From a virus (taxonomy: Duplodnaviria > Heunggongvirae > Uroviricota > Caudoviricetes): a stretch of 42,369 nucleotides of DNA. How positions within the stretch are numbered: position 1 is the first letter of the stretch; each line of letters opens with the position of its first letter. The notes under the pieces were generated by a model. The model was not told the DNA's origin. It ran no database searches and saw only the letters and a program-made list of their open reading frames with translations. Positions 9,301 to 27,106 of this stretch are shown here, one piece after another. The stretch lies in the IMG/VR virus record IMGVR_UViG_3300036828_000686, positions 66,333 to 108,701 of that record. One strand, 5' to 3'. Position numbers and translations under genes: made by a program.

Positions 9301-9609
9301 CTACTTCCGGACGATAGGCGCGGGGCGTCCCTTGCCCGCGCCGGGACGGCCGGACGTGACCCTGGTCTCCGGTACGACGGCCTCGCGGGTCTCGTCCCGG
9401 GTCTCCGCCCGGGACTCCGGCGCGTCCCCGGTCTCGGTCCGCTTCTCCGCGTAGACGGCGAGCGGGACGTTGGAGCTGCCCCCGGTGAGGGTGAGGAGAC
9501 GGGCTTCCGCTTCATCGACCTCAAACTCGACGCCTGCGGGCGGCCACGCCCGGCCGTCCCCGCGGGGACCACTGATGTCCTGCTTCATGATGACCCGGAC
9601 CATGCTCAC
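9301..9609 (-). CDS. Small phage protein of the type usually encoded just after the major capsid
   Basis: VRVIMKQDISGPRGDGRAWPPAGVEFEVDEAEARLL followed by low-complexity tail; GTG overlaps the upstream TGA. Confidence 0.6.
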   Translation of the reverse strand: MSMVRVIMKQDISGPRGDGRAWPPAGVEFEVDEAEARLLTLTGGSSNVPLAVYAEKRTETGDAPESRAETRDETREAVVPETRVTSGRPGAGKGRPAPIVRK

Positions 9610-10622
9610 GTCAGAACCTCCTGGTAGGCAGCGGCCCATTTGTGCCAGTTGCCCTCGATGGTGTGCTGCGCAGCCAGTTCGCGGGCTTTCTTGCCCATGC
9701 TCTCACGCAGGGCGTCGTCAGCCACTAGCTCGCGGATGTAATCCCGCCAGTCCTTGTCGCGTTTCGCCAGGAACCCGGTGACGCCGTGCTGGACAAACTC
9801 GGGGTAGGGCCCGAAGTTCGAGGCGATCACCGGGATGCCCATCGCCGCGTACTCCAGGGCCTTCAGGAACGACTTGGACTCGTTGAACACGCTGGACGTG
9901 ATGGGTGCCAGGCCGATGTCGAAATCCAGGTTCTTGTAGTAGTTCCGCGGGTCAGGTTCCCAGCGGGTGAGCCGGGCGTGGGTGTGGCCGAATGTGGGCC
10001 GGAAATCGGTGCCGACAATGTGCAGCCGCAGCGACGGGTCGGTGTTCATGCACCGCCGCACCGCGCGGGCGATCATGGCCGTGTCCAGGGTGTGGCTCGC
10101 ACCGCCGGTCCAGCCGATGGTGACGTGCTCGGGCCGGTGCCGCTCCAGCCCGAGCACGAACTCAGGGACGTAATTGCCGATGACTTTCACGTTCGGGTGC
10201 CCGGTCTGGCGGCGGATCACCTCAGCCAGCGGCTCCCTGGTTACTGTCACCAGGTCCGAGGCGTTGATGGCGGTTTCCACCGCGTCGAGGGTGTGGAAGC
10301 GGCTGTAGACCTGGTAGGCGGCGTTGTTGGTCTGGTCCACGCTCCACAGGTCATCGTCCAGCTCGTAGGCCAGCTTGTGGTACTGGCGCATCCGCCGCCA
10401 CGCACCCAGCACGGCCGGCCGGTCGAAACGCTGCCCCACCACCAGCCGGTAGTCGCCAAGGTCAGGCGGCGGGTCGAACGCCTTCCAGCCGGCCTTCCAG
10501 CCGTTGGCCTTCAGCTGCTCCAGGGGCAGGACCATCCGGTAAAACCCGCAGCCGGTGGGCTGGTGGTCCGTCTCGGACTGGGCGTCGTGGATGCCCCACA
10601 CGCTGCTGGTGAAGGCCATCAT
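9606..10622 (-). CDS. GT-B (GT4-like) glycosyltransferase
   Basis: GCGFYRM, YELDDDLW, IGWTGGASH, FDIGLAPI...FNESKS.LKALEYAAMGIPVIAS. Confidence 0.85.
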   Translation of the reverse strand: MMAFTSSVWGIHDAQSETDHQPTGCGFYRMVLPLEQLKANGWKAGWKAFDPPPDLGDYRLVVGQRFDRPAVLGAWRRMRQYHKLAYELDDDLWSVDQTNNAAYQVYSRFHTLDAVETAINASDLVTVTREPLAEVIRRQTGHPNVKVIGNYVPEFVLGLERHRPEHVTIGWTGGASHTLDTAMIARAVRRCMNTDPSLRLHIVGTDFRPTFGHTHARLTRWEPDPRNYYKNLDFDIGLAPITSSVFNESKSFLKALEYAAMGIPVIASNFGPYPEFVQHGVTGFLAKRDKDWRDYIRELVADDALRESMGKKARELAAQHTIEGNWHKWAAAYQEVLT

Positions 10623-11347
10623 GATCCTCCGCGGTAAGCGCTGGGCCAGACGTCCACGGTGGTCTGCGGCACGAACACGTACTCCACCCCGTGGGCCAGC
10701 CACTTCTCCACCAGTTTCCAGTCTTCCATCGAATCGGGGGGACCCCAGGTGGCCAGGTCCAGCAGGCCCCGGCGGTGGATCATCATGGGTGTCCCGATCC
10801 CGCATGGGGTCAGCGCCTCAGTGCCGATCACTGTCACGTTCCCGGTGGCCGCCCCGTAGCTGGCCATCCGGGAGTAGGCCAGCCCGGCCTTCGGGTTGGT
10901 CATCAGGGCACTCACGAGCACCTGCACGTGTTCGGGGCGCAGGGCGTCATCGTCGTCGATGTAGGCGATCAGCTCACCGCGGGCCAGCTCAATGCCATGC
11001 AGCCGGGCGCGCGATCCCCATTCCCCCGTGTGGTCGGGAAGCTGGGCGAACGTCACCGGATGGTTGTGCTCCTTCAGGACCGGGCCGGTCACAGGGAAGC
11101 TCTCAGGAGGCACGGCGCTCAGGTAGACCTGGTTCATGTAGTCGGTCATCAGCAGCTGCGCCAGGGCCGGGTCAGGCCCGTCGCAGACGATGATGTGCTC
11201 GATGTGGCGGTAGGTCTGGGCCTGCACTGAGGGCATGCAGCGGCTGATCAGCCAGTCGTGACGGTGCCAGGTGGGGGTGATGACGCTGACCAGCGGCAGC
11301 GGGTGCGGCGGCTTGGCGGCCTCGACGTGCTCCTGGATGTTCACCAT
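10619..11347 (-). CDS. GT2 glycosyltransferase
   Basis: VSVITPTW, IIVCDG, GELIAYIDDDD (DxD). Confidence 0.85.
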   Translation of the reverse strand: MVNIQEHVEAAKPPHPLPLVSVITPTWHRHDWLISRCMPSVQAQTYRHIEHIIVCDGPDPALAQLLMTDYMNQVYLSAVPPESFPVTGPVLKEHNHPVTFAQLPDHTGEWGSRARLHGIELARGELIAYIDDDDALRPEHVQVLVSALMTNPKAGLAYSRMASYGAATGNVTVIGTEALTPCGIGTPMMIHRRGLLDLATWGPPDSMEDWKLVEKWLAHGVEYVFVPQTTVDVWPSAYRGGS

Positions 11348-19482: not shown

Positions 19483-20067
19483 TCAGGTACCGGGGCCCGA
19501 CCCCGCCACGTGGGTGGAGGTGGACGGCCGGTGGCCCTTCAGCCAGCCGCCGTACATCACGTGACTGGTGCCGTCCTGGCCATCGGTCTGGTACCGGCCC
19601 GAGCCCGGCTGCGGCGTGTTGCCCGCAGTGCCCGGCATCTCGTAGCCGTCGCCGTAGGAGTGGTTGTTGGCCTGGGTCCAGTCCGCGGTGCCGGAGATCG
19701 CGGCCTTCACGGTCTCCTGGGCGTACCCGGTGCCGTCAGGCTGGCTGTAGGTGGTGTCCGGGTCACGCTGGCCCTTGTAGAACGTGGGCTTGGAATAGGT
19801 CACGGAGTCCGGGCCGCTGCTGCCCCCGCCGTAGGGGACGCCTGCGGTGCCGGGCGCACCGGAGCCGTCCAGGGCCACGCCCGTGAACGTCTCCTTGGCC
19901 GGGTACTGGCCCGGCTCGTTGGTGTTGCCCTGGTCCTGCTTACTGGACTGCGGGGACCCGCCTGCGGCTCCTGACCCGAAGTTCTGCTCGGGCAGCTCGA
20001 ACAGGTGGAAGGCCGTGGTGGGGTACTGGCCCGGCAGCTCCGAATGATTGCCTGGGTAACTTGCCAT
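19483..20067 (-). CDS. Gly/Pro/Ser/Thr-rich protein directly after capsid
   Basis: ATG 20067 with purine-rich upstream sequence; repeated PGQYP. Confidence 0.65.
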   Translation of the reverse strand: MASYPGNHSELPGQYPTTAFHLFELPEQNFGSGAAGGSPQSSKQDQGNTNEPGQYPAKETFTGVALDGSGAPGTAGVPYGGGSSGPDSVTYSKPTFYKGQRDPDTTYSQPDGTGYAQETVKAAISGTADWTQANNHSYGDGYEMPGTAGNTPQPGSGRYQTDGQDGTSHVMYGGWLKGHRPSTSTHVAGSGPGT

Positions 20068-20103
20068 CGTCCTGCCTTTCGGGCCGGGAGGTAAACAGTC
20101 CTG

Positions 20104-20137
20104 CCGGGGAGCCACCGGCCGCGGGGTGGCTCCCCGG
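20104..20137 (-). terminator. 13-bp hairpin after capsid gene (terminator or transcript stabiliser)
   Basis: ccggggagccacc / ggtggctccccgg perfect inverted repeat just downstream of capsid stop. Confidence 0.65.
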
Positions 20138-20142
20138 AAGGC

Positions 20143-21453
20143 TCAGGTGGCAGCGCCGGTGTACAGCTTGATGGCGCCGGTCTGGTCAACCAGGGCCCCG
20201 TCGCCACGGATCAGCGCACGGAAGGCCACCAGGTCGGACCCGAACAGGAAGTCGTCGGACCGCTCGAACCGGACCGGGCCGACGATACGCACGAAGAACT
20301 GGCTGAAGTCACCGAACGCGACCGACTTGCCGGAGGTGCCCACCGCTGGCATGTACGGGTCTGCCACCAGCGGCTTGCCGAGCAGCAGGTCAGGCGACCC
20401 GAGAACCATCGAAGGCTCCCAGATCGGGCGGGACTGCGCGTCCACGATCAGCCGGAACCCGCCGATCGTCGCGTCCTTGGCGAGCCAGTAGCAGCTCTTG
20501 GACTGACGGTAGGGGGCGATGACCGAGTACTCCAGGTTCACCAGGTCCTGGTAGCGCGGGATGCCGGTGACGCCGGTCGCCCCGGTGACACCGATCGAGG
20601 AGCTGGCGATCAGGCCGGTCGGCTGGCCCGACCCGACGCCGGTCACCAGGTCGGACCCGAACTTGTTGCCCAGCGCCCGGCCGGACTGCATGGCCAGGTA
20701 GCCGATCAGGTCCACCCCGGAGTCGTCCAGCAGCTCGCGGGCCACCTGGAGCAGGATGCCGTACTTGTAGGCCGACAGGGTGACCAGGCCGAACGCCGGG
20801 TCGGCGGACGGGATGGTGCCCGACTGGGCCGCGGACGCCGCGACGGAGTGCGACGTGGTCTTCGGGATCTGCAGGTTCTCGCCGCCGGCCGTGTTGAGCA
20901 CGGTCGGGCCGCACTGCAGCAGGCCGCTGACCTCGATGAGGTGCGCGATCAGCTGGTCGTAGAAGTCGGTCGGGACCAGGTTGCCACCAACGGCCGCGGA
21001 CGAGGTGGACAGGGTCCGGTACTCAGCCTCGGCCCGGCGCATCTCCGCCAGGTTGATGGGGCCGTAGTTCCAGTTGATCCGGCTGTTCTCCGGGCGCTTG
21101 ACCTCGTAGGCGTTGCCGCCGGAGACGTTGCCGCGGGACTCACCGAGCAGGAAGGAACGCAGCTCGCTGTTCAGCTGCTGGACAGCCGGGTTCTTCGCCC
21201 GGTCCTTGCCTTCCTTGTCGGCGTGCAGCCGGTTGAACGCCTCGTCGGCCTGCGCGGAACGCTGCTCAGCGTCGAGAGCGGCCTTGATCCTCTTGTCGAG
21301 GTTGTCCATCTCCTCGTTGAGGACTTCCCAGCTGCCCTGCTCCTCCGCGGAGAACGCGCGGTTCTCGGTCGCGGCGGTGTCGGCAAGAGCCTTGCACTGC
21401 TCCCAGACGTTAAGACGCCGGTCGCGGAGCCTCTTGGTGACCTCACTGGCCAT
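20143..21453 (-). CDS. HK97-fold major capsid protein with N-terminal coiled-coil delta domain
   Basis: GGNLVPTDF, LSAYKYG.L.QV.RELLDDS..DL..YL, G.G..QPTG, YW....D.Q.RPIW.P...G.P..LLGKP, FGDFS.F. Confidence 0.95.
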   Translation of the reverse strand: MASEVTKRLRDRRLNVWEQCKALADTAATENRAFSAEEQGSWEVLNEEMDNLDKRIKAALDAEQRSAQADEAFNRLHADKEGKDRAKNPAVQQLNSELRSFLLGESRGNVSGGNAYEVKRPENSRINWNYGPINLAEMRRAEAEYRTLSTSSAAVGGNLVPTDFYDQLIAHLIEVSGLLQCGPTVLNTAGGENLQIPKTTSHSVAASAAQSGTIPSADPAFGLVTLSAYKYGILLQVARELLDDSGVDLIGYLAMQSGRALGNKFGSDLVTGVGSGQPTGLIASSSIGVTGATGVTGIPRYQDLVNLEYSVIAPYRQSKSCYWLAKDATIGGFRLIVDAQSRPIWEPSMVLGSPDLLLGKPLVADPYMPAVGTSGKSVAFGDFSQFFVRIVGPVRFERSDDFLFGSDLVAFRALIRGDGALVDQTGAIKLYTGAAT

Positions 21454-21587
21454 GCCATCCTCCTGGTGGCCCGGTACGGGAATTGACTCCCGGCGGGCTC
21501 CAGCCAGGCGGCGGAGGGGCTGCCTCGCGCCTACGGCCTCACAGGACGGATGGCCTACTCGTCCTGGTCCTGATGCTACACGTGATA

Positions 21588-21611
21588 CTGGCGGGGGCTA
21601 CCCCCCGCCAG
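21588..21611 (-). terminator. 10-bp GC hairpin just after protease stop, in capsid leader
   Basis: ctggcggggg-ctac-cccccgccag; no U tract, so role uncertain. Confidence 0.45.
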
Positions 21612-21618
21612 CAGCAGA

Positions 21619-22635
21619 TTATTCCGGCGAGTCGTCCCACTGGTCGCGCTTGCGGCGCAGCAGCATGGCGGCGGCCTGCGGCCCGAACAGTCCCTTGCGG
21701 GGACCGGCCGGCGCGGAGATGGACGGGCGGTCGGTGCGGATGAACAGCTTCCGCATCTCACCGTCGTTGGCCAGCGCCCTGACCTCATCCACGGTGGCCT
21801 GCGCCCACGACGCCGCGGACTCGATCGCGGCCTGGGTGGCGCGGACCGCGGCGGTGGAGTCGGGGTAGCCGGGCGACAGCACGGGCGCCACGTCGATCAG
21901 CTCAACGCAGTGCAGGGTCCGGATCGGGAAGTTCCGCTCATCCACACCCCACTCGTCGCCACCCGGGGTGACCCGGAACGCGAACGAGCTGTAGCGGATG
22001 TCGCGGCGCTGGACCAGCTCGCGGATGTCGGCACGGGCCTCGGGCGGCTTGACCATGTAGTCCAGGCCGATCCGGTCAGGCTGGAGCCGCAGCGTGTCCG
22101 CCTCGGAGGTGCCGAGCACCATGTTGGAGTCGTGGTTGTAGCGGCACACGATCCCGGTGTTGTCGCTCATGTTCCGCCAGCCGCCCGCACGGACCTCGTC
22201 GAAGCAGTGCGGGGAGACGCGCTCCACGAAACCGCCGAGGTTCTTGGACTCGCGGGGGATGAACACGGTGGCGTAGCCGCCGATCCACTTCCCGTCGCTG
22301 CCCATGTCGCGGAACTCCAGCGGCTTGTCCAGGTCCCGGTACAGCGAGGTGACCCGCAGCTCGCGCAGCTCCGCGTCCATGGTGATGGAGTTCTCGCCCA
22401 CGTGGACGCCGAACTTCTTCGCCGCGGTCTTGATCTTGCTCATCGCCTTCTCACCGAAAGGCGACTGGCTGGCCCGTGCCAGCGCGTTGCGCACATGAGC
22501 GGCGTCATGCACAGGGAAATGACGCAGGCTCCGCGGGACCGTCTTCCCGTTGGAGTCCTTGCTGCCGCCGTCCTCGATGTAGGCGAATGCGCTGTCCGGC
22601 AGGTCATTCTGATCTGCCTGGGTGATAGCCGCCAT
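21619..22635 (-). CDS. HK97-family prohead protease with N-terminal helical extension
   Basis: GGYATVF, YNHD..MVLG, SSFAFRV, LIDVAPV..PGYPDS; N-terminal LPDSAFA...RHFPVHDAAHVRNALAR segment. Confidence 0.9.
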   Translation of the reverse strand: MAAITQADQNDLPDSAFAYIEDGGSKDSNGKTVPRSLRHFPVHDAAHVRNALARASQSPFGEKAMSKIKTAAKKFGVHVGENSITMDAELRELRVTSLYRDLDKPLEFRDMGSDGKWIGGYATVFIPRESKNLGGFVERVSPHCFDEVRAGGWRNMSDNTGIVCRYNHDSNMVLGTSEADTLRLQPDRIGLDYMVKPPEARADIRELVQRRDIRYSSFAFRVTPGGDEWGVDERNFPIRTLHCVELIDVAPVLSPGYPDSTAAVRATQAAIESAASWAQATVDEVRALANDGEMRKLFIRTDRPSISAPAGPRKGLFGPQAAAMLLRRKRDQWDDSPE

Positions 22636-24749
22636 CAGTGAGCCTTCCCGTTTACGGCGGCCAGCTGGCCGGCCATATCGAACTGCGTTGCCCTCTTCTG
22701 AAGGAGGACCATCGCGGCCGGGCCGAACAGAGGCTGCGCCTCCACTTGGCCCTCTTCTGGCGGGGAGGCGGCTCTCTCGCTCGCTGGAAGGTCTGCGAGT
22801 AGGGTATCAAGATCGCCGCAGGTTACTGCCTCTCCTGCCTTGCGATTTCGCTCATCAATTTCCGCCTGCCGCAGCCGGCCTGCCGCACCGGCCTCCGTAA
22901 TGCGCTTCCGGGCCCGCGCCCGGTCCTCATCAGAGGCCCGCATCCCGGCCGGCCCGAAGGTTTCACGTGAAACAGACGGGGCGACCCCATCGGTCATAAT
23001 CGGCAGGCCCTTGAACAGTTCCGCCAGCTGTCCCGTGGTCTCGGCGTTGAAGGCCCGGCTGATCCGCGCCGACGCTTCCTGGTCGCTGAGATGCCCCAGC
23101 CTGGCGTGCTCGCCCAGCATTGTGACCGCGGACTTGCGGTCCGAGGCCGTGGCCTTCGCGCCTGGCGGCCCGAACAGCAGGGCACGCTCGGACGTCAGCA
23201 GCCGGCCCAGGTACTGCTCGGGGGTCACGCCGACCGCGGGCTGGTCGTTGCCGGTATCCGCGGGCTCGCCCGGGTTGCCCACGTCGCCTGGCTCGTGCAT
23301 GGCAGGCGGGTTACTGCCGCTGCCGTTGCTGCTGCTGGCACCCTGGCCCTGCTCGGCTTCCGCCGCGGCACCCAGCGGCGTGCCCTTGAAAGCGGGCGCA
23401 TTGCTCGGCGGCGGCGCGGTCAGGCCCTTGCGCTGCATCTCCTCCAGCAGGGCGGCGATGTGGTCCACTTCCAGCATGACCTGCGGGACCAGTGCCTTCG
23501 GGATGGCCCGGGTCGTGGTCACCATGCGCTGCAGCACCGACAGCGGGATCGCGTCGTCGCCGCCGACGACCTTCGGCAGGTCGTCGTCGGCCCGGATCTC
23601 GTTCTGGGTCCGGGTGCCCATGGTGCGCTGCAGCTCATAGATCTGGTTGCGGGTATGCGGGTCGGTCTTCAGCAGCGCGTCGGTGTCGAACTTCGCGTAC
23701 TGGGTCGCGGGCAGCAGCATGGTGAACAGGTGCTCCCAGCGCGTCAGCCACGGCCGCAGCGTGTTCTGCAGCTCGTCCAGCTGGTCCATGGTCTGGTTGG
23801 TGTAGGTCAGCCCGTCGTTGCGGGTACCGCCGACCCGCTGCGGGCGCACCCCGAAGATCGCCGCGACCTGGGTCGCGTTCAGCTGCATGGCCTGGATGAA
23901 CGTCGCCTCGTTCGGCGGCACGGTCAGCGGCTTGTACTCCCAGTCCCGGCCGTAGACCAGCGGCTGGCGCAGCCGGATCGTGTCGGTGAGCCGCCTGCGG
24001 ATCTCATCGGCCTGGCTCTTGTCCACCTCTTCGGAGATGTTCTGGAACGTGCCCGGGGGGAAACCGCCGTTGGTGAACCAGTCAGCCGAGTACTTGAGGG
24101 TCTCCAGGCCCTGCGACCACAGCATGGAGAACGCGTGGATCGGGCTGATGCCCTCCACCCGGCCAGCCACGCTGAACGCCTTCATGTGGACCAGCTCGCT
24201 CTGCTCCACCAGCCGGCCGTTGTAGTAGATCTTCGCCCGGAACGGGTTCTCCGGCTGCTGCTCATCGTCGGTGACCGACATGCGGTCCGGCGGCAGCCAC
24301 GCGATTCCCGTGGGCAGGCCCTGGCCGTCCGGGCCGGGAATACCGGAACGGTTGGTGATCAGGCCCCAGGCGTTGCCCCACAGCAGCGCCGAGGTGCAGC
24401 CGGTGAACAGCCAGTCATACAGGGTGCCGGAAACCTGCGGGCCGCCGCCCGCGATGGGGCTGCCCAGCAGCATCGAAGAGTAGATGCGCTCTGAGCTACC
24501 ATCCGGTCGCTGTCTGTAAACTTTAATGGGCAAGCTCGCGATGGCGTCGGCTATAAATCTGACCGCCGAGTACACCGCGGCCAGGCCGAGCACGGTCTCC
24601 TGGCCCTGCACCTCACGAGAAGGGTGAACAGGTCAAGGGCCCCCGATGTTGAACTTCCAATACGGGTTAAATTACGCCACGGTTGCCAGGGGACATAAAA
24701 CTCCCCCGATAGTGCGCGTTTCAATATTGATGCGATCAACCAGGGACAT
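22635..24749 (-). CDS. HK97-family portal protein; predicted start ATG 24749 requiring three translational hops (698 aa), with C-terminal extension
   Basis: AVYSAVRFIADAIASLP, LLWGNAW, HMKAFS...GISPI, Q..QL.ATQVAAIFGV.P, L.PWL.RWE; RBS GAGGGGGGTGAGG before ATG 24749; ORF-track start GTG 24611 lacks a spaced RBS. Confidence 0.88.
24630..24701 (-). other. Three candidate translational bypass sites: GTT-TTA-T-GTC (24701-24692), AAT-TT-AAC (24673-24666), CCT-TGA-CCT (24638-24630)
   Basis: Each has synonymous take-off and landing codons flanking TTA or a stop in the A site; 7+5+6=18 nt restores the portal frame. Confidence 0.75.
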
Positions 24750-24773
24750 TGGGCCTCACCCCCCCTCGCGCAG

Positions 24774-24782
24774 TGCTACTTT
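24774..24782 (+). promoter_or_regulatory. Extended -10 promoter for a leaderless HNH transcript
   Basis: TGc-TACTTT, 7 nt before ATG 24790, no RBS. Confidence 0.5.
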
Positions 24783-24789
24783 TGAGCAC

Positions 24790-25323
24790 ATGCGTACTGG
24801 TAATGGCGGAGTGCGCCGCGGTCCTGACCTGACGCCGCGCACGCGGCATTCGGATGCTGGCCGCAGGCGCGACTGGGTGAGGACTCCGGCGTACAACTCC
24901 TGGGTACAGATGCGCTCCCGCTGCAACAACCCGAACTATCCGCGCTGGGCAGACTGGGGTGGTCGGGGCATCAAGGTTTGTGACCGCTGGGCCAGCTTCG
25001 AGAACTTCCTGGCCGACATGGGTGATCGGCCAGCTGGCACCACGCTTGAAAGGAAAGACAACGAGCGGGGATACGGTCCGGATAACTGCGTGTGGGCAAC
25101 TCCTGCGCAGCAAGCGAGGAATAAGCGGAGTACGCGCCTCACGCAGCGGAAGTGCCTGGAAGTCATCAGGCTGCTGGGCGAGGGGCTGGGCATCAAGGCC
25201 GCGGCCAGCAGGGCCGGGATCGAGCGTCACACGGTCGGCGTGATCGCGACAACGATCGAGACCCTGCACGCTGACCACGAACAGCCTCCTGAGAGGGATC
25301 GGCTAGGTTCGCGGCCAGGATGA
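24790..25323 (+). CDS. Free-standing HNH homing endonuclease, antisense to the structural operon
   Basis: YNSWVQMRSRCNNPNY..W..WGGRGIKVCDRW.SFENFLADMG.RP.GTTLERKDN..GY.PDNC.WAT..QQARNKR, typical phage HNH family. Confidence 0.88.
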   Translation: MRTGNGGVRRGPDLTPRTRHSDAGRRRDWVRTPAYNSWVQMRSRCNNPNYPRWADWGGRGIKVCDRWASFENFLADMGDRPAGTTLERKDNERGYGPDNCVWATPAQQARNKRSTRLTQRKCLEVIRLLGEGLGIKAAASRAGIERHTVGVIATTIETLHADHEQPPERDRLGSRPG

Positions 25324-25330
25324 TCCGGTA

Positions 25331-25888
25331 TCAGCGTAGCCCAGTATCAGGCCAGCACACGGACCACACTTCGTCAGGTTCGCACCAGGGTTCCCATCGC
25401 CGCCCCCAGGATTGCCAGCCGGTGCCGTCATCAAGGACCGCGTGCGGGGCGGGGAGGTCCACGCCGAGGATGAGGTGCCCCGGGCCTGGGCCCTCATCGA
25501 AGACGGGCCGGCGGCCGGCCAGCCCGTAGTGCGCCGCGGCCTCCAGCCCGTCCCCGATGAGCACGTACCCGTCCGGTCCCGCGATCCGCAGGTGCAGGGC
25601 CAGCATGTCCTCGCCGGTGACGGGGAAGGGTGCTGACGCTGCGATGGCCTGGGCCACGCAGCAGGAGACATCGCCGGGCGACAGGCCCTTGGCGGCCCGT
25701 TTCACCTTCGGCTTGAAGCTGGCCCTCAGTGCTCTCAGGGACTGCCGCTTGGCCCTGGCTGCGTCGCGCCTGGCGGTCGGTGATCCCGGCTGGACAGGCG
25801 GGATGTAGACGTTGGGTCCCTGGAAGCTCTTGGTGTTAGCCACCCGCCGCGCCTGCCCCTTGCGGGTGACAGCCGGTGCCTTAGCCAT
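25331..25888 (-). CDS. Basic N-terminal segment plus reduced papain-like peptidase domain
   Basis: SCCVAQAIA (Cys), LILGVDL, PHAVL (His), WQSWG occur in the same order as in the neighbouring C1 peptidase. Confidence 0.55.
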   Translation of the reverse strand: MAKAPAVTRKGQARRVANTKSFQGPNVYIPPVQPGSPTARRDAARAKRQSLRALRASFKPKVKRAAKGLSPGDVSCCVAQAIAASAPFPVTGEDMLALHLRIAGPDGYVLIGDGLEAAAHYGLAGRRPVFDEGPGPGHLILGVDLPAPHAVLDDGTGWQSWGRRWEPWCEPDEVWSVCWPDTGLR

Positions 25889-26762
25889 AGAACTGCTTCG
25901 CGTGGCCCCAGCTCACCAGTGCGTCCTTCAGGACAACCAGGTCGGGGCGGGTGCGCGGCATGGCTGACCACGGTCCTGCGACCTGCCACAGTGTGACATC
26001 CGGGTTCGCCGGGACCGGGATGGGCACGGGGGCGGGCTGGGACAGCGGGGTGGAGACGGTGCAGTCTCCCTGCTCAGCGAGGAGGCGCTCCATCGTGGCC
26101 CAGCTCAGTTCCATGGAGCCGCCGTTGCCCCACGAGGTGCCCCACGAGTTATCGGCGTAGAACAGCTGGCCGGTGACCTGGCAGCCGCGGATCACGAACT
26201 CGTGGCCGCCCCGGATCGAGGCGTTGGGGCTGATCGAGATCAGGCCACCGGAACCGGGAGCATCGAAACTGTCATACCAGTTGACCCCCACGATCACGGG
26301 GCCTGACTGCAGGGCGTCGGCCATGGCGGTCACCGTGGTGGCGTGGGTGTACCCGGAGATGAGGCCCAGGTTCTTCGCAGCCTGGCAGGCCGAGGAGCCC
26401 GAGGAGCCGTTGTCGTTAGGCGGGTACGGGCCGTCGCCGTCCACGTCCTCGGCGCCGGAGTAAATCTTTACTGCCATCGACTCGTCCAGCACCGTGCCCG
26501 CAGGCATCGTGGCGAAGAACGGGACGGTGCCGCACACCCCGTCTTCCGCGTTCCCGGTACAGGAGCCCACTGAGCCCTGGTCCAGGATCGCGATCATCCG
26601 CTTCCACAGCTGGTCGGCCAGGGCGGCGGACTCCCTGGTGAACTGGTACGGGTATCCCGCGCTGCGGGAGTCCCACTTGTAGTTGCGCCCCAGCGGCAGC
26701 GGGCGCTCTGGTGATGCCGGGTACCAGGGGATGAGCTTGTGGGTCACGCTCCAGGCGGTCAT
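25881..26762 (-). CDS. Papain-like (C1A-type) cysteine peptidase
   Basis: LDQGSVGSCTG (Gln, Cys), GGHEF (His), NSWGTSWG.GG (Asn). Confidence 0.85.
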   Translation of the reverse strand: MTAWSVTHKLIPWYPASPERPLPLGRNYKWDSRSAGYPYQFTRESAALADQLWKRMIAILDQGSVGSCTGNAEDGVCGTVPFFATMPAGTVLDESMAVKIYSGAEDVDGDGPYPPNDNGSSGSSACQAAKNLGLISGYTHATTVTAMADALQSGPVIVGVNWYDSFDAPGSGGLISISPNASIRGGHEFVIRGCQVTGQLFYADNSWGTSWGNGGSMELSWATMERLLAEQGDCTVSTPLSQPAPVPIPVPANPDVTLWQVAGPWSAMPRTRPDLVVLKDALVSWGHAKQFYG

Positions 26763-27106
26763 CACTGCATCCGGGACAGCTCGGCGCGCAGCCGCGCGTT
26801 CTCTTCCAGCACCGCTTCCACGCTCGGGGTGGACAGCGGCCTGCCCTGCGCCTCACGCCAGCCCATCTTGGCTGCCGACGCGCACCACGCACCGGACAGG
26901 AACAGGACGCCGAAGGTCTTGCCCAGGACCCAGAACAGGCCGAAGATGATGCCGCCGATGAGGCCGAGCACGGCCCGGCCGGGCCGGGCCTGCCGGGCGT
27001 CGGCGGTGATCGTGTCGAGCGGCACGCGGTCCTGCAGCCGCTTGCGGTGCTCATTAACCGCCGGGAAATCCAGGGTCGCCGTGTTCGTGCCTACACGCTG
27101 TGCCAT
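26762..27106 (-). CDS. Membrane protein
   Basis: Hydrophobic AVLGLIGGIIFGLFWVLGKTFGVLFL; RBS GGAGG. Confidence 0.7.
   Translation of the reverse strand: MAQRVGTNTATLDFPAVNEHRKRLQDRVPLDTITADARQARPGRAVLGLIGGIIFGLFWVLGKTFGVLFLSGAWCASAAKMGWREAQGRPLSTPSVEAVLEENARLRAELSRMQ

Follow-up and report, generated by a model that had tools for sequence, protein, structure and literature searches.

A phage portal gene interrupted by three short gaps that are probably crossed by serial translational bypassing

The portal gene of an uncultured tailed phage (Caudoviricetes; IMG/VR virus record IMGVR_UViG_3300036828_000686) lies on the minus strand of the 42,369-nt stretch analysed here (positions 66,333 to 108,701 of the record; hereafter the window, whose numbering is used throughout). 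The gene is interrupted close to its 5' end by three short gaps, and the full-length portal protein is probably made by three serial hops of the translating ribosome. The three re-pairing events postulated in an initial annotation of this DNA (with TTA, TTA and TGA in the ribosomal A site, respectively) are supported by gapless homologues, by TTA-led gaps in 31 of 76 related 5' ends and by the pattern of selection on the leader, i.e. the N-terminal part of the gene in which the gaps reside.

The start codon of the gene (ATG 24749) is preceded, at a distance of 4 nt, by a purine-rich ribosome binding site (RBS; GAGGGGGGGTGAGG, 24754-24767, with GGTGAGG at 24760-24754), and comparable G-rich sites precede the ATG in the relatives L001 and L002. 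Segment 1 (24699-24749, codons 1-17, M...IGGV) is identical in protein sequence to the gapless homologues and ends with the putative take-off codon GTT (24701-24699). It is followed by gap 1 (TTATGTC, 7 nt, 24692-24698), whose first triplet, TTA (24698-24696), would occupy the A site, and whose last triplet, GTC (24694-24692), would serve for landing. Segment 2 (24671-24691, codons 18-24, PWQPWRN, CCC to AAT) lies in frame +1 with respect to the ATG, AAT being its last and take-off codon; in gap 2 (TTAAC, 5 nt, 24666-24670) a TTA would again enter the A site, and landing would occur on AAC (24668-24666). The same arrangement, AAT[TTAAC] (the gap is given in brackets), recurs in the distant relative L118. 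Segment 3 (24636-24665, codons 25-34, PYWKFNIGGP, CCG to CCT) ends with the take-off codon CCT, located behind a GGGGG run, and in gap 3 (TGACCT, 6 nt, 24630-24635) the stop codon TGA would occupy the A site, with CCT (24632-24630) as the landing codon. Segment 4 (22635-24629) consists of VHPSRE (GTT CAC CCT TCT CGT GAG) and of the 658-aa open reading frame (ORF) called from GTG 24611, which encodes an HK97-type portal domain (PF04860; Pfam E = 9.5e-54) and two C-terminal DUF1707 units (PF08044). ATG 24749 and GTG 24611 are in one frame, 138 nt apart, and the unspliced reading between them meets TAA and TGA. Deletion of the 18 nt joins the segments into a protein of 17+7+10+6+658 = 698 aa. The start codon with its RBS, the three gaps (GTT/GTC, AAT/AAC and CCT/CCT) and the joined length had all been given in the initial annotation, and both the coordinates and the recomputed sum agree with it exactly.

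A portal protein search identified 344 relatives, of which P0005, P0012, P0014, P0009, P0023 and others have an N-terminus exactly equal to the joined peptide of the window. The 7-, 5- and 6-nt gaps of the window are missing from L065, L002, L001 and P0005, to whose N-termini the joined peptide is identical. The alignment with homologous portals that the initial annotation had suggested thus revealed that relatives without the inserts encode the joined peptide, and a match of this kind, to the N-terminus of uninterrupted homologues, is far beyond chance. An alignment of 19 full-length relatives showed that few residues of the family are as conserved as the 46 at the N-terminus, with P18, W19, P21, W22, N24, P25, Y26, F29, G32, G33, P34, H36 and P37 being invariant. 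The DNA of L001 and L002 carries a gap of its own, a 10-nt block after codon 23 (CGA[TTAGGCCCGT]), because of which the gene caller truncated both proteins.

According to the proposed mechanism, translation would start at ATG 24749 and proceed through three short bypasses in series. Once codon 17 has been decoded, GUU would occupy the P site and the very rare UUA the A site, and the ribosome would wait for a scarce or absent tRNA-Leu(UAA); the peptidyl-tRNA-Val would then leave GUU and re-pair with GUC 7 nt downstream, and decoding would restart at CCC. The second hop would take place at AAU-UUA, with landing on AAC 5 nt downstream, and in the third (CCU-UGA) the stop codon would replace the hungry codon, with landing on CCU 6 nt downstream. 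The product would be the 698-aa portal with the conserved N-terminus of the family. If UUA were decoded normally, or if a release factor acted at UGA, translation would yield no more than a peptide of about 25-35 aa, so that portal output would depend on slow decoding of the UUA and UGA codons. The ribosomal events themselves, their efficiency and their purpose are inferred.

In all, 130 related loci from soil metagenomes and viral contigs were compared, and 76 distinct, well-aligned 5' ends were counted. The gaps were called by matching the DNA to a profile covering residues 1-75, with a frame-aware dynamic programme that tolerated skipped nucleotides. At least one recoding-type gap was detected in 31 of the 76 distinct 5' ends (one gap in 22, two in 6, three in 2, and four in a single gene, that of L007). 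The resulting prevalence of 41% is approximate, because one of the two search patterns demanded an intact GGVPWQPW, which leaves gaps at codons 17-22 under-sampled. Altogether 44 gaps were found: in 39 a TTA lies directly 3' of the last sense codon, one is led by TGA and four are doubtful alignments; gap 3 of the window is therefore the sole stop-led case among the 40 well-formed gaps. The TTA- and stop-led gaps are 2-15 nt long and occur after codons 17-35, and no interruption was observed in the next 250-330 codons of 69 loci. The four-gap allele of L007 was found as an identical leader in six loci, with records from several metagenomes.

The landing triplet is identical to the take-off codon in 11 and synonymous with it in 17 of the 40 well-formed gaps (28 together), while shuffled landing triplets gave a mean of 5.5 matches and a maximum of 14 in 10,000 trials, and triplets slid by 1-2 nt gave 0-4. 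The usual take-off/landing pairs are CGA to CGT or CGC, GTT to GTC, AAT to AAC, CAG to CAG and TAC to TAC; one landing type corresponds to a +2 slip on TTT-TT.

Analysis of codon usage revealed a single TTA among 35,177 codons of the portal bodies, none among 5,698 spliced leader codons, and at most six in about 24,000 codons of the whole phage. The last figure comes from a crude gene set, which was used instead of a first scan by the G+C content of third codon positions (GC3) alone, as the latter was confounded by antisense frames. On this gene set the absence of further in-frame TTA codons from the minus-strand genes, noted in the initial annotation, holds; two candidate in-frame TTAs (window positions 10637 and 20094) fall upstream of the real start codons. 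A contig-wide scan had also indicated a TTA-led gap at contig position 9593, and this candidate was rejected, since the region contains two separate genes with an ordinary in-frame TTA. The small gene at contig 9533-9720 (about 1035-1220 of L132), which had resembled a 10-nt gap, encodes a probable membrane peptide (MSLLDLIVPVLIVAV...), and its TTA is among the very few plausible sense TTAs of the phage.

The phage carries 31 tRNA genes at contig 19655-26075, outside the window, on the complementary strand. This cluster serves many rare A-ending codons (AGA, AAA, CAA, GAA, GGA, CCA) and includes tRNA-Val-GAC, tRNA-Asn-GUU and tRNA-Pro-UGG; no tRNA-Leu(UAA), tRNA-Ser or tRNA-His is present among the 31. 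TGA is the commonest stop codon of the phage.

Is the leader translated as part of the portal at all? The portal could start at GTG 24611 or later, the upstream DNA being a decaying remnant or an unrelated short ORF, or the allele could be defective. The gene caller indeed began the window's protein (P0001) at 24611, and several database portals were called from the equivalent VQGQ position; moreover, the Pfam portal model begins at residue 12 of the called ORF. AlphaFold modelling of a gapless homologue as a monomer (19-sequence alignment) gave pLDDT values below 50 for residues 1-46, so that a structural need for the leader is not evident and the model says nothing about its structural role. 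Against this stands the absence of a spaced RBS at GTG 24611, for which the initial annotation is borne out, as opposed to the RBS at ATG 24749. Furthermore, the leader belongs to the best-conserved parts of the portal family, and its changes are almost only synonymous in the bypass-defined frames: the spliced leader (46 codons) of the window differs from that of L002 by 26 synonymous and one non-synonymous codons, and from that of L001 by 26 and two, respectively; L001 and L064, which have a common gap at site 23, differ by 19 synonymous and no non-synonymous codons between codons 10 and 40. All four codons are used at the invariant Gly and Pro positions. By these codon comparisons the leader is under strong purifying selection in the frames defined by bypassing, and such almost purely synonymous differences exclude a decaying remnant. 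Nor would decay lead to a TTA at the 5' border in 39 of the 40 gaps, or to landing codons that match. The following 250-330 codons of 69 loci are free of gaps. A dead or separate leader is unlikely.

The interrupted reading frames might also be restored without hopping, by +1 and -1 (or +2) frameshifts at the TTA sites combined with TGA readthrough, each site adding 1-2 extra residues to the protein. The gap lengths of 7, 5 and 6 nt (1, 2 and 0 mod 3) would allow single shifts and readthrough to do so, and two in-frame gaps of 6 nt in L010 can be read as two added residues each, as in the called protein P0032. We consider this explanation very unlikely, because the residues would be added inside invariant motifs and sites for re-pairing are lacking: neither tRNA-Val on GUU-U nor tRNA-Asn on AAU-U has a slippery +1 or -1 partner, whereas exact or synonymous codons stand at the gap ends. 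In addition, the in-frame gaps of 12-15 nt found in relatives hold in-frame stops. In the case of the terminase gene of phage Hau3, mass spectrometry and a test based on a +1-frame stop codon favoured bypass (PMC10732093).

The leader of L010 (about 360-395) deserves separate mention. Its two in-frame TTA-led gaps, GTT[TTAGTC] and CGA[TTACGC], mean that normal decoding and hopping would both yield a full-length portal, the products differing by two 2-residue insertions, and it is possible that this locus represents an intermediate or dual-product state.

Finally, the inserts might be removed before translation by RNA excision or editing, be absent from part of the DNA population, or result from assembly errors. 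Logan contigs from two soil runs reproduced positions 24400-24900, and hence all three gaps, without difference (depths 21 and 5); these runs may be the source samples, which makes them independent of the assembler and not of the sample. A stronger case against an artefact is the recurrence of analogous TTA-led gaps in dozens of independent assemblies. One observation in favour of removal or absence is a short low-depth contig (run X1, contig record 5), which aligns to window positions 24561-24659 with 9 mismatches and 6 fewer letters, and which may come from a co-occurring relative without the TGACCT gap. As regards removal at the RNA level, we know of no mechanism that cuts 2-15-nt blocks of varied sequence from bacterial mRNA. 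We therefore regard this group of explanations as highly improbable.

Several observations nevertheless weigh against serial bypassing. Serial hops multiply losses, and the hop at TGA must compete with a release factor; spontaneous hops at hungry and stop codons in E. coli are reportedly inefficient. Twelve of the 40 landing triplets are only near-cognate or unmatched, and gaps 2 and 3 of the window lack predicted structure. The rarity of TTA was measured in the phage and its relatives, and slow decoding of UUA may not be a property of the host. Since the contig has no terminal repeat, the genome may be incomplete and may not be viable.

We also searched for local signals that might stimulate take-off. 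An 8-bp hairpin is predicted at gap 1 (24686-24709, minus strand; -13 kcal/mol, z = -2.25), in which a G-run pairs with the CCCC of Pro18 and the loop encloses GTT (the take-off codon), TTA and the beginning of the landing triplet. Its 5' arm is Shine-Dalgarno-like (GGGGGAG) and abuts the take-off codon, and the G-run might act either as a hairpin arm or as a Shine-Dalgarno-like signal. The same stem is present in L007 (15-nt gap, extended stem) and L010 (6-nt gap), whose gaps share this site, and all four genes with a gap at site 17/18 have GGGGGR as codons 15-16, as compared with none of 30 genes without it. Folded in its entirety, the leader does not stand out (z = -1.24). At gap 3 a GGGGG run lies ahead of the take-off codon and a C follows UGA, and the likeness to prfB is limited to this run and the UGA-C context. 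A prfB-type +1 frameshift (SD-CUU-UGA-C) was rejected for this site: the gap is 6 nt long and in frame, and a +1 shift would break the frame. It is possible that the nascent peptide contributes to take-off. Most take-off sites are located 1-2 residues past a Trp or a Gly-Gly, and the Hau3 take-off site comes after KGWG (PMC5009743).

Mapping of the gaps on a tree of portal bodies revealed a scattered distribution: the nine occurrences of a gap at site 23 require nine changes. The nearest relative of the window, L065, with a 98% identical protein, has no gap, and L052 and L058 have identical bodies with two gaps different. By these distributions the gaps turn over fast. The portal gene of the window has a 5' tract (24460-24749, minus strand) of A/T-shifted codons, which is 63-90% identical to L065 over the first 290 nt, while from about nt 300 onward most of the gene is 97-100% identical; GC3 of this tract is 0.67-0.72, compared with 0.93-0.97 in L065. 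In the whole set, the difference between leader and body GC3 averages -0.17 in gap-bearing and -0.04 in gapless genes (Mann-Whitney p = 3e-8, uncorrected for phylogeny). A/T-shifted leaders are also seen in L010, L093, L062, L073 and L064, the last having a leader GC3 of 0.47 and a body GC3 of 0.91. No donor of the 5' tract was found among the other leaders accompanied by an HNH endonuclease gene (see below), as the window leader is no nearer to these than it is to L065, its sister.

A free-standing HNH endonuclease gene (24790-25323, plus strand; PHROG HNH E = 1e-35 to 1e-38) is located 40 nt from the portal ATG, in divergent orientation. Its start is probably the ATG at 24790. A Pfam analysis of the ORFs upstream of the portal on both strands gave no match for the HNH ORF at E < 0.01. 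In L073, L062, L064 and L118, which all bear gaps, an HNH homologue is found at the corresponding position, so that five lineages including the window show this arrangement; none of the gapless loci examined has an HNH gene there. In comparisons between near-identical relatives (L118 with L100, L064 with L072) about 650 nt are cleanly inserted directly upstream of the portal, along with the gap(s), and in the five lineages the HNH gene and gaps are found together while sister loci are devoid of both. HNH genes were counted in 3 of 24 gap-bearing and 0 of 37 gapless loci (Fisher p = 0.056), and among five independent pairs 3-4 pointed in the same direction and none in the opposite one (sign test p = 0.125-0.25). 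No recognisable HNH gene is present in 26 of the 31 gap-bearing loci, and a PHROG scan upstream of ten other gap-bearing portals detected no endonuclease. The association between HNH genes and gaps, as seen in these loci, is no more than suggestive. The divergent, A/T-shifted 5' tract would be compatible with protection from cleavage, although it is not specific to it.

Two non-exclusive purposes of the gaps may be considered by analogy with known systems. The gaps may sense the supply of tRNA-Leu(UAA), as proposed for Hau3, or they may mark a mobile cassette composed of the HNH gene and the leader and protect the allele from being cut, as the 50-nt gap does in T4 gene 60 and mobA. A mobile cassette with a homing endonuclease would provide a second rationale compatible with tRNA sensing. 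As a tentative extension, the first 35 codons of the portal gene in this family of soil phages, of roughly 100 kb each, might constitute a battleground of HNH homing, in which TTA-led gaps and A/T recoding would be immunity marks, tolerated by hopping over a codon that the host barely decodes.

Spontaneous or synthetic short hops and stop-hops in E. coli were reportedly described by Weiss et al. in 1987, and hungry-codon bypassing by Gallant and Lindsley. As in the window, peptidyl-tRNA re-pairs there to a cognate codon a few nucleotides downstream, with a stop or a starved codon in the A site, and the distances include +2, +5 and +6. Those events occurred at a low level in reporters; in the window an essential natural gene would require the hops, one after another, and would have maintained them in evolution.

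The 50-nt bypass of T4 gene 60 and its mobA cassette were reportedly described by Huang (in 1988) and Bonocora (in 2011). The window shares with this system the matching of take-off with landing codons and an A-site codon that cannot be decoded, and a take-off hairpin is predicted (here at gap 1 only). The portal family further resembles it in having, in some lineages, an HNH gene next to an interrupted 5' region, in the existence of near-identical genomes with and without the endonuclease and gap, and in the many lineages with the gap from which the endonuclease is gone. For mobA and gene 60, sister genomes with and without the element have been described, as has loss of the endonuclease with retention of the bypass (Manning and Atkins, bioRxiv 10.1101/2022.08.31.505936). 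The gaps of the window differ from that of gene 60 in being 5-7 nt long instead of 50 nt, in occurring several per gene, in having mostly a rare sense codon as the trigger instead of UAG, and in leaving the host gene unsplit. Moreover, most gap-bearing portal relatives have no nearby endonuclease, and the likeness considered here is one of arrangement.

The closest parallel in the trigger codon is the bypass proposed for Hau3 by Smith et al. 2013 (J Bacteriol), as related in PMC10732093 and PMC5009743. UUA-led gaps were found in 3 of 100 terminase genes surveyed, namely in Hau3 (two 10-nt gaps) and in the StrepC.1 and S. catenulae prophages (7 nt), and Antonov et al. 2023 detected the Hau3 junction peptide by mass spectrometry in E. 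coli, using a UAA variant (PMC10732093). Both systems are characterised by short frame-disrupting blocks, by the rare UUA directly past the last sense codon and by location in an essential virion-assembly gene of a phage of high GC content. In each case the flanking parts combine into a conserved protein, the gap finishes 3' with a landing codon, and a local stem-loop together with an internal Shine-Dalgarno-like sequence has been proposed as a stimulator. The 7- and 10-nt sizes recur in the portal family. Gaps 1 and 2 of the window fit the UUA-led criterion of the Hau3-type bypass, while gap 3 starts with TGA instead, which is one T-to-G change from TTA. The portal system departs from Hau3 in the gene concerned (portal, not terminase) and in belonging to a different, uncultured phage family. 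It also differs in the number of gaps (three within 72 nt in the window and up to four in relatives), in their lengths (2-15 nt), in the presence of one natural stop-led gap, in prevalence (about 40% of the portal family compared with 3 of 100 terminases), in rapid turnover and in the link with HNH genes in five lineages.

As far as can be judged from the accounts in PMC10732093 and PMC5009743, the Byp elements of Magnusiomyces capitatus mitochondria (Lang 2014, Nosek 2015) resemble the portal gaps in that many bypassed inserts occur per gene, are mobile or turn over fast, and in some cases have near-matched landings. According to the same accounts, Byps are mitochondrial, 27-55 nt long and without a TTA lead, and there is no sequence relationship between them and the portal gaps. 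A full-text literature search (portal, UUA, bypassing, phage) returned no description of a portal case. New in comparison with the known systems are the gene and phage family, serial gaps within 72 nt, the range of lengths from 2 to 15 nt, the natural gap led by a stop codon, the high prevalence, the fast turnover and, in some lineages, the HNH link.

The record containing the window, a virus contig of 108.7 kb with a G+C content of 67%, comes from a soil metagenome. The gene order is terminase, portal, S78 protease, capsid: the large terminase gene (phrog_9) is located 2.6 kb upstream of the portal, a Peptidase_S78 gene is next downstream, and the capsid protein matches PF05065. A search of a phage DNA collection with positions 24400-24900 gave no match, and two scans of contigs of a genome collection revealed neither a relative nor a prophage copy. 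In a phage protein search the best cultured portal relatives, less than 30% identical, were cluster-J-like mycobacteriophages of about 110 kb. Together with codon usage and the DUF1707 units, whose distribution in Pfam we take to be a pointer to such hosts, these relatives point to an actinobacterial host. A scenario involving Streptomyces, bldA and the developmental state of the host, as sketched in the initial annotation, is an extrapolation.

Two other features of the window were observed. Between the terminase and portal genes lies an ORF of 294 aa (25881-26765, minus strand) with a weak match to papain-family cysteine proteases (PF00112, E = 2.3e-6), and a peptidase (phrog_16701) is similarly placed in the relative L076. 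Directly past the stop codon of the capsid gene there is a strong inverted repeat (20100-20145, minus strand; GGGGAGCCACC ... GGTGGCTCCCC), which, from its position, is likely to be a terminator or attenuator ahead of the next late gene (ATG near 20065).

Natural bypassing is known from very few systems, and for its UUA-triggered form the evidence consists of three terminase genes and of experiments that are partial. In the portal family the same UUA logic recurs in another essential gene, with as many as four instances inside 20 codons, and it is shared by dozens of phages sampled independently, whose genes, when bearing such gaps, are routinely truncated by gene callers. The portal gaps constitute a natural mutational series (2-15 nt, several take-off tRNAs, with or without a hairpin or a Shine-Dalgarno-like run), which allows the rules that govern take-off, landing and stimulation to be deduced. 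The possible tie between rare-codon hopping and a mobile endonuclease cassette bears on the origin of bypassing, and on whether it serves regulation or the tolerance of selfish DNA. If the first 35 codons are indeed a battleground of HNH homing, the logic of T4 gene 60 and mobA would be merged here with the UUA logic of Hau3, and efficient serial hopping over 2-15 nt would be routine for the ribosomes of high-GC bacteria and used by about 40% of a phage family.

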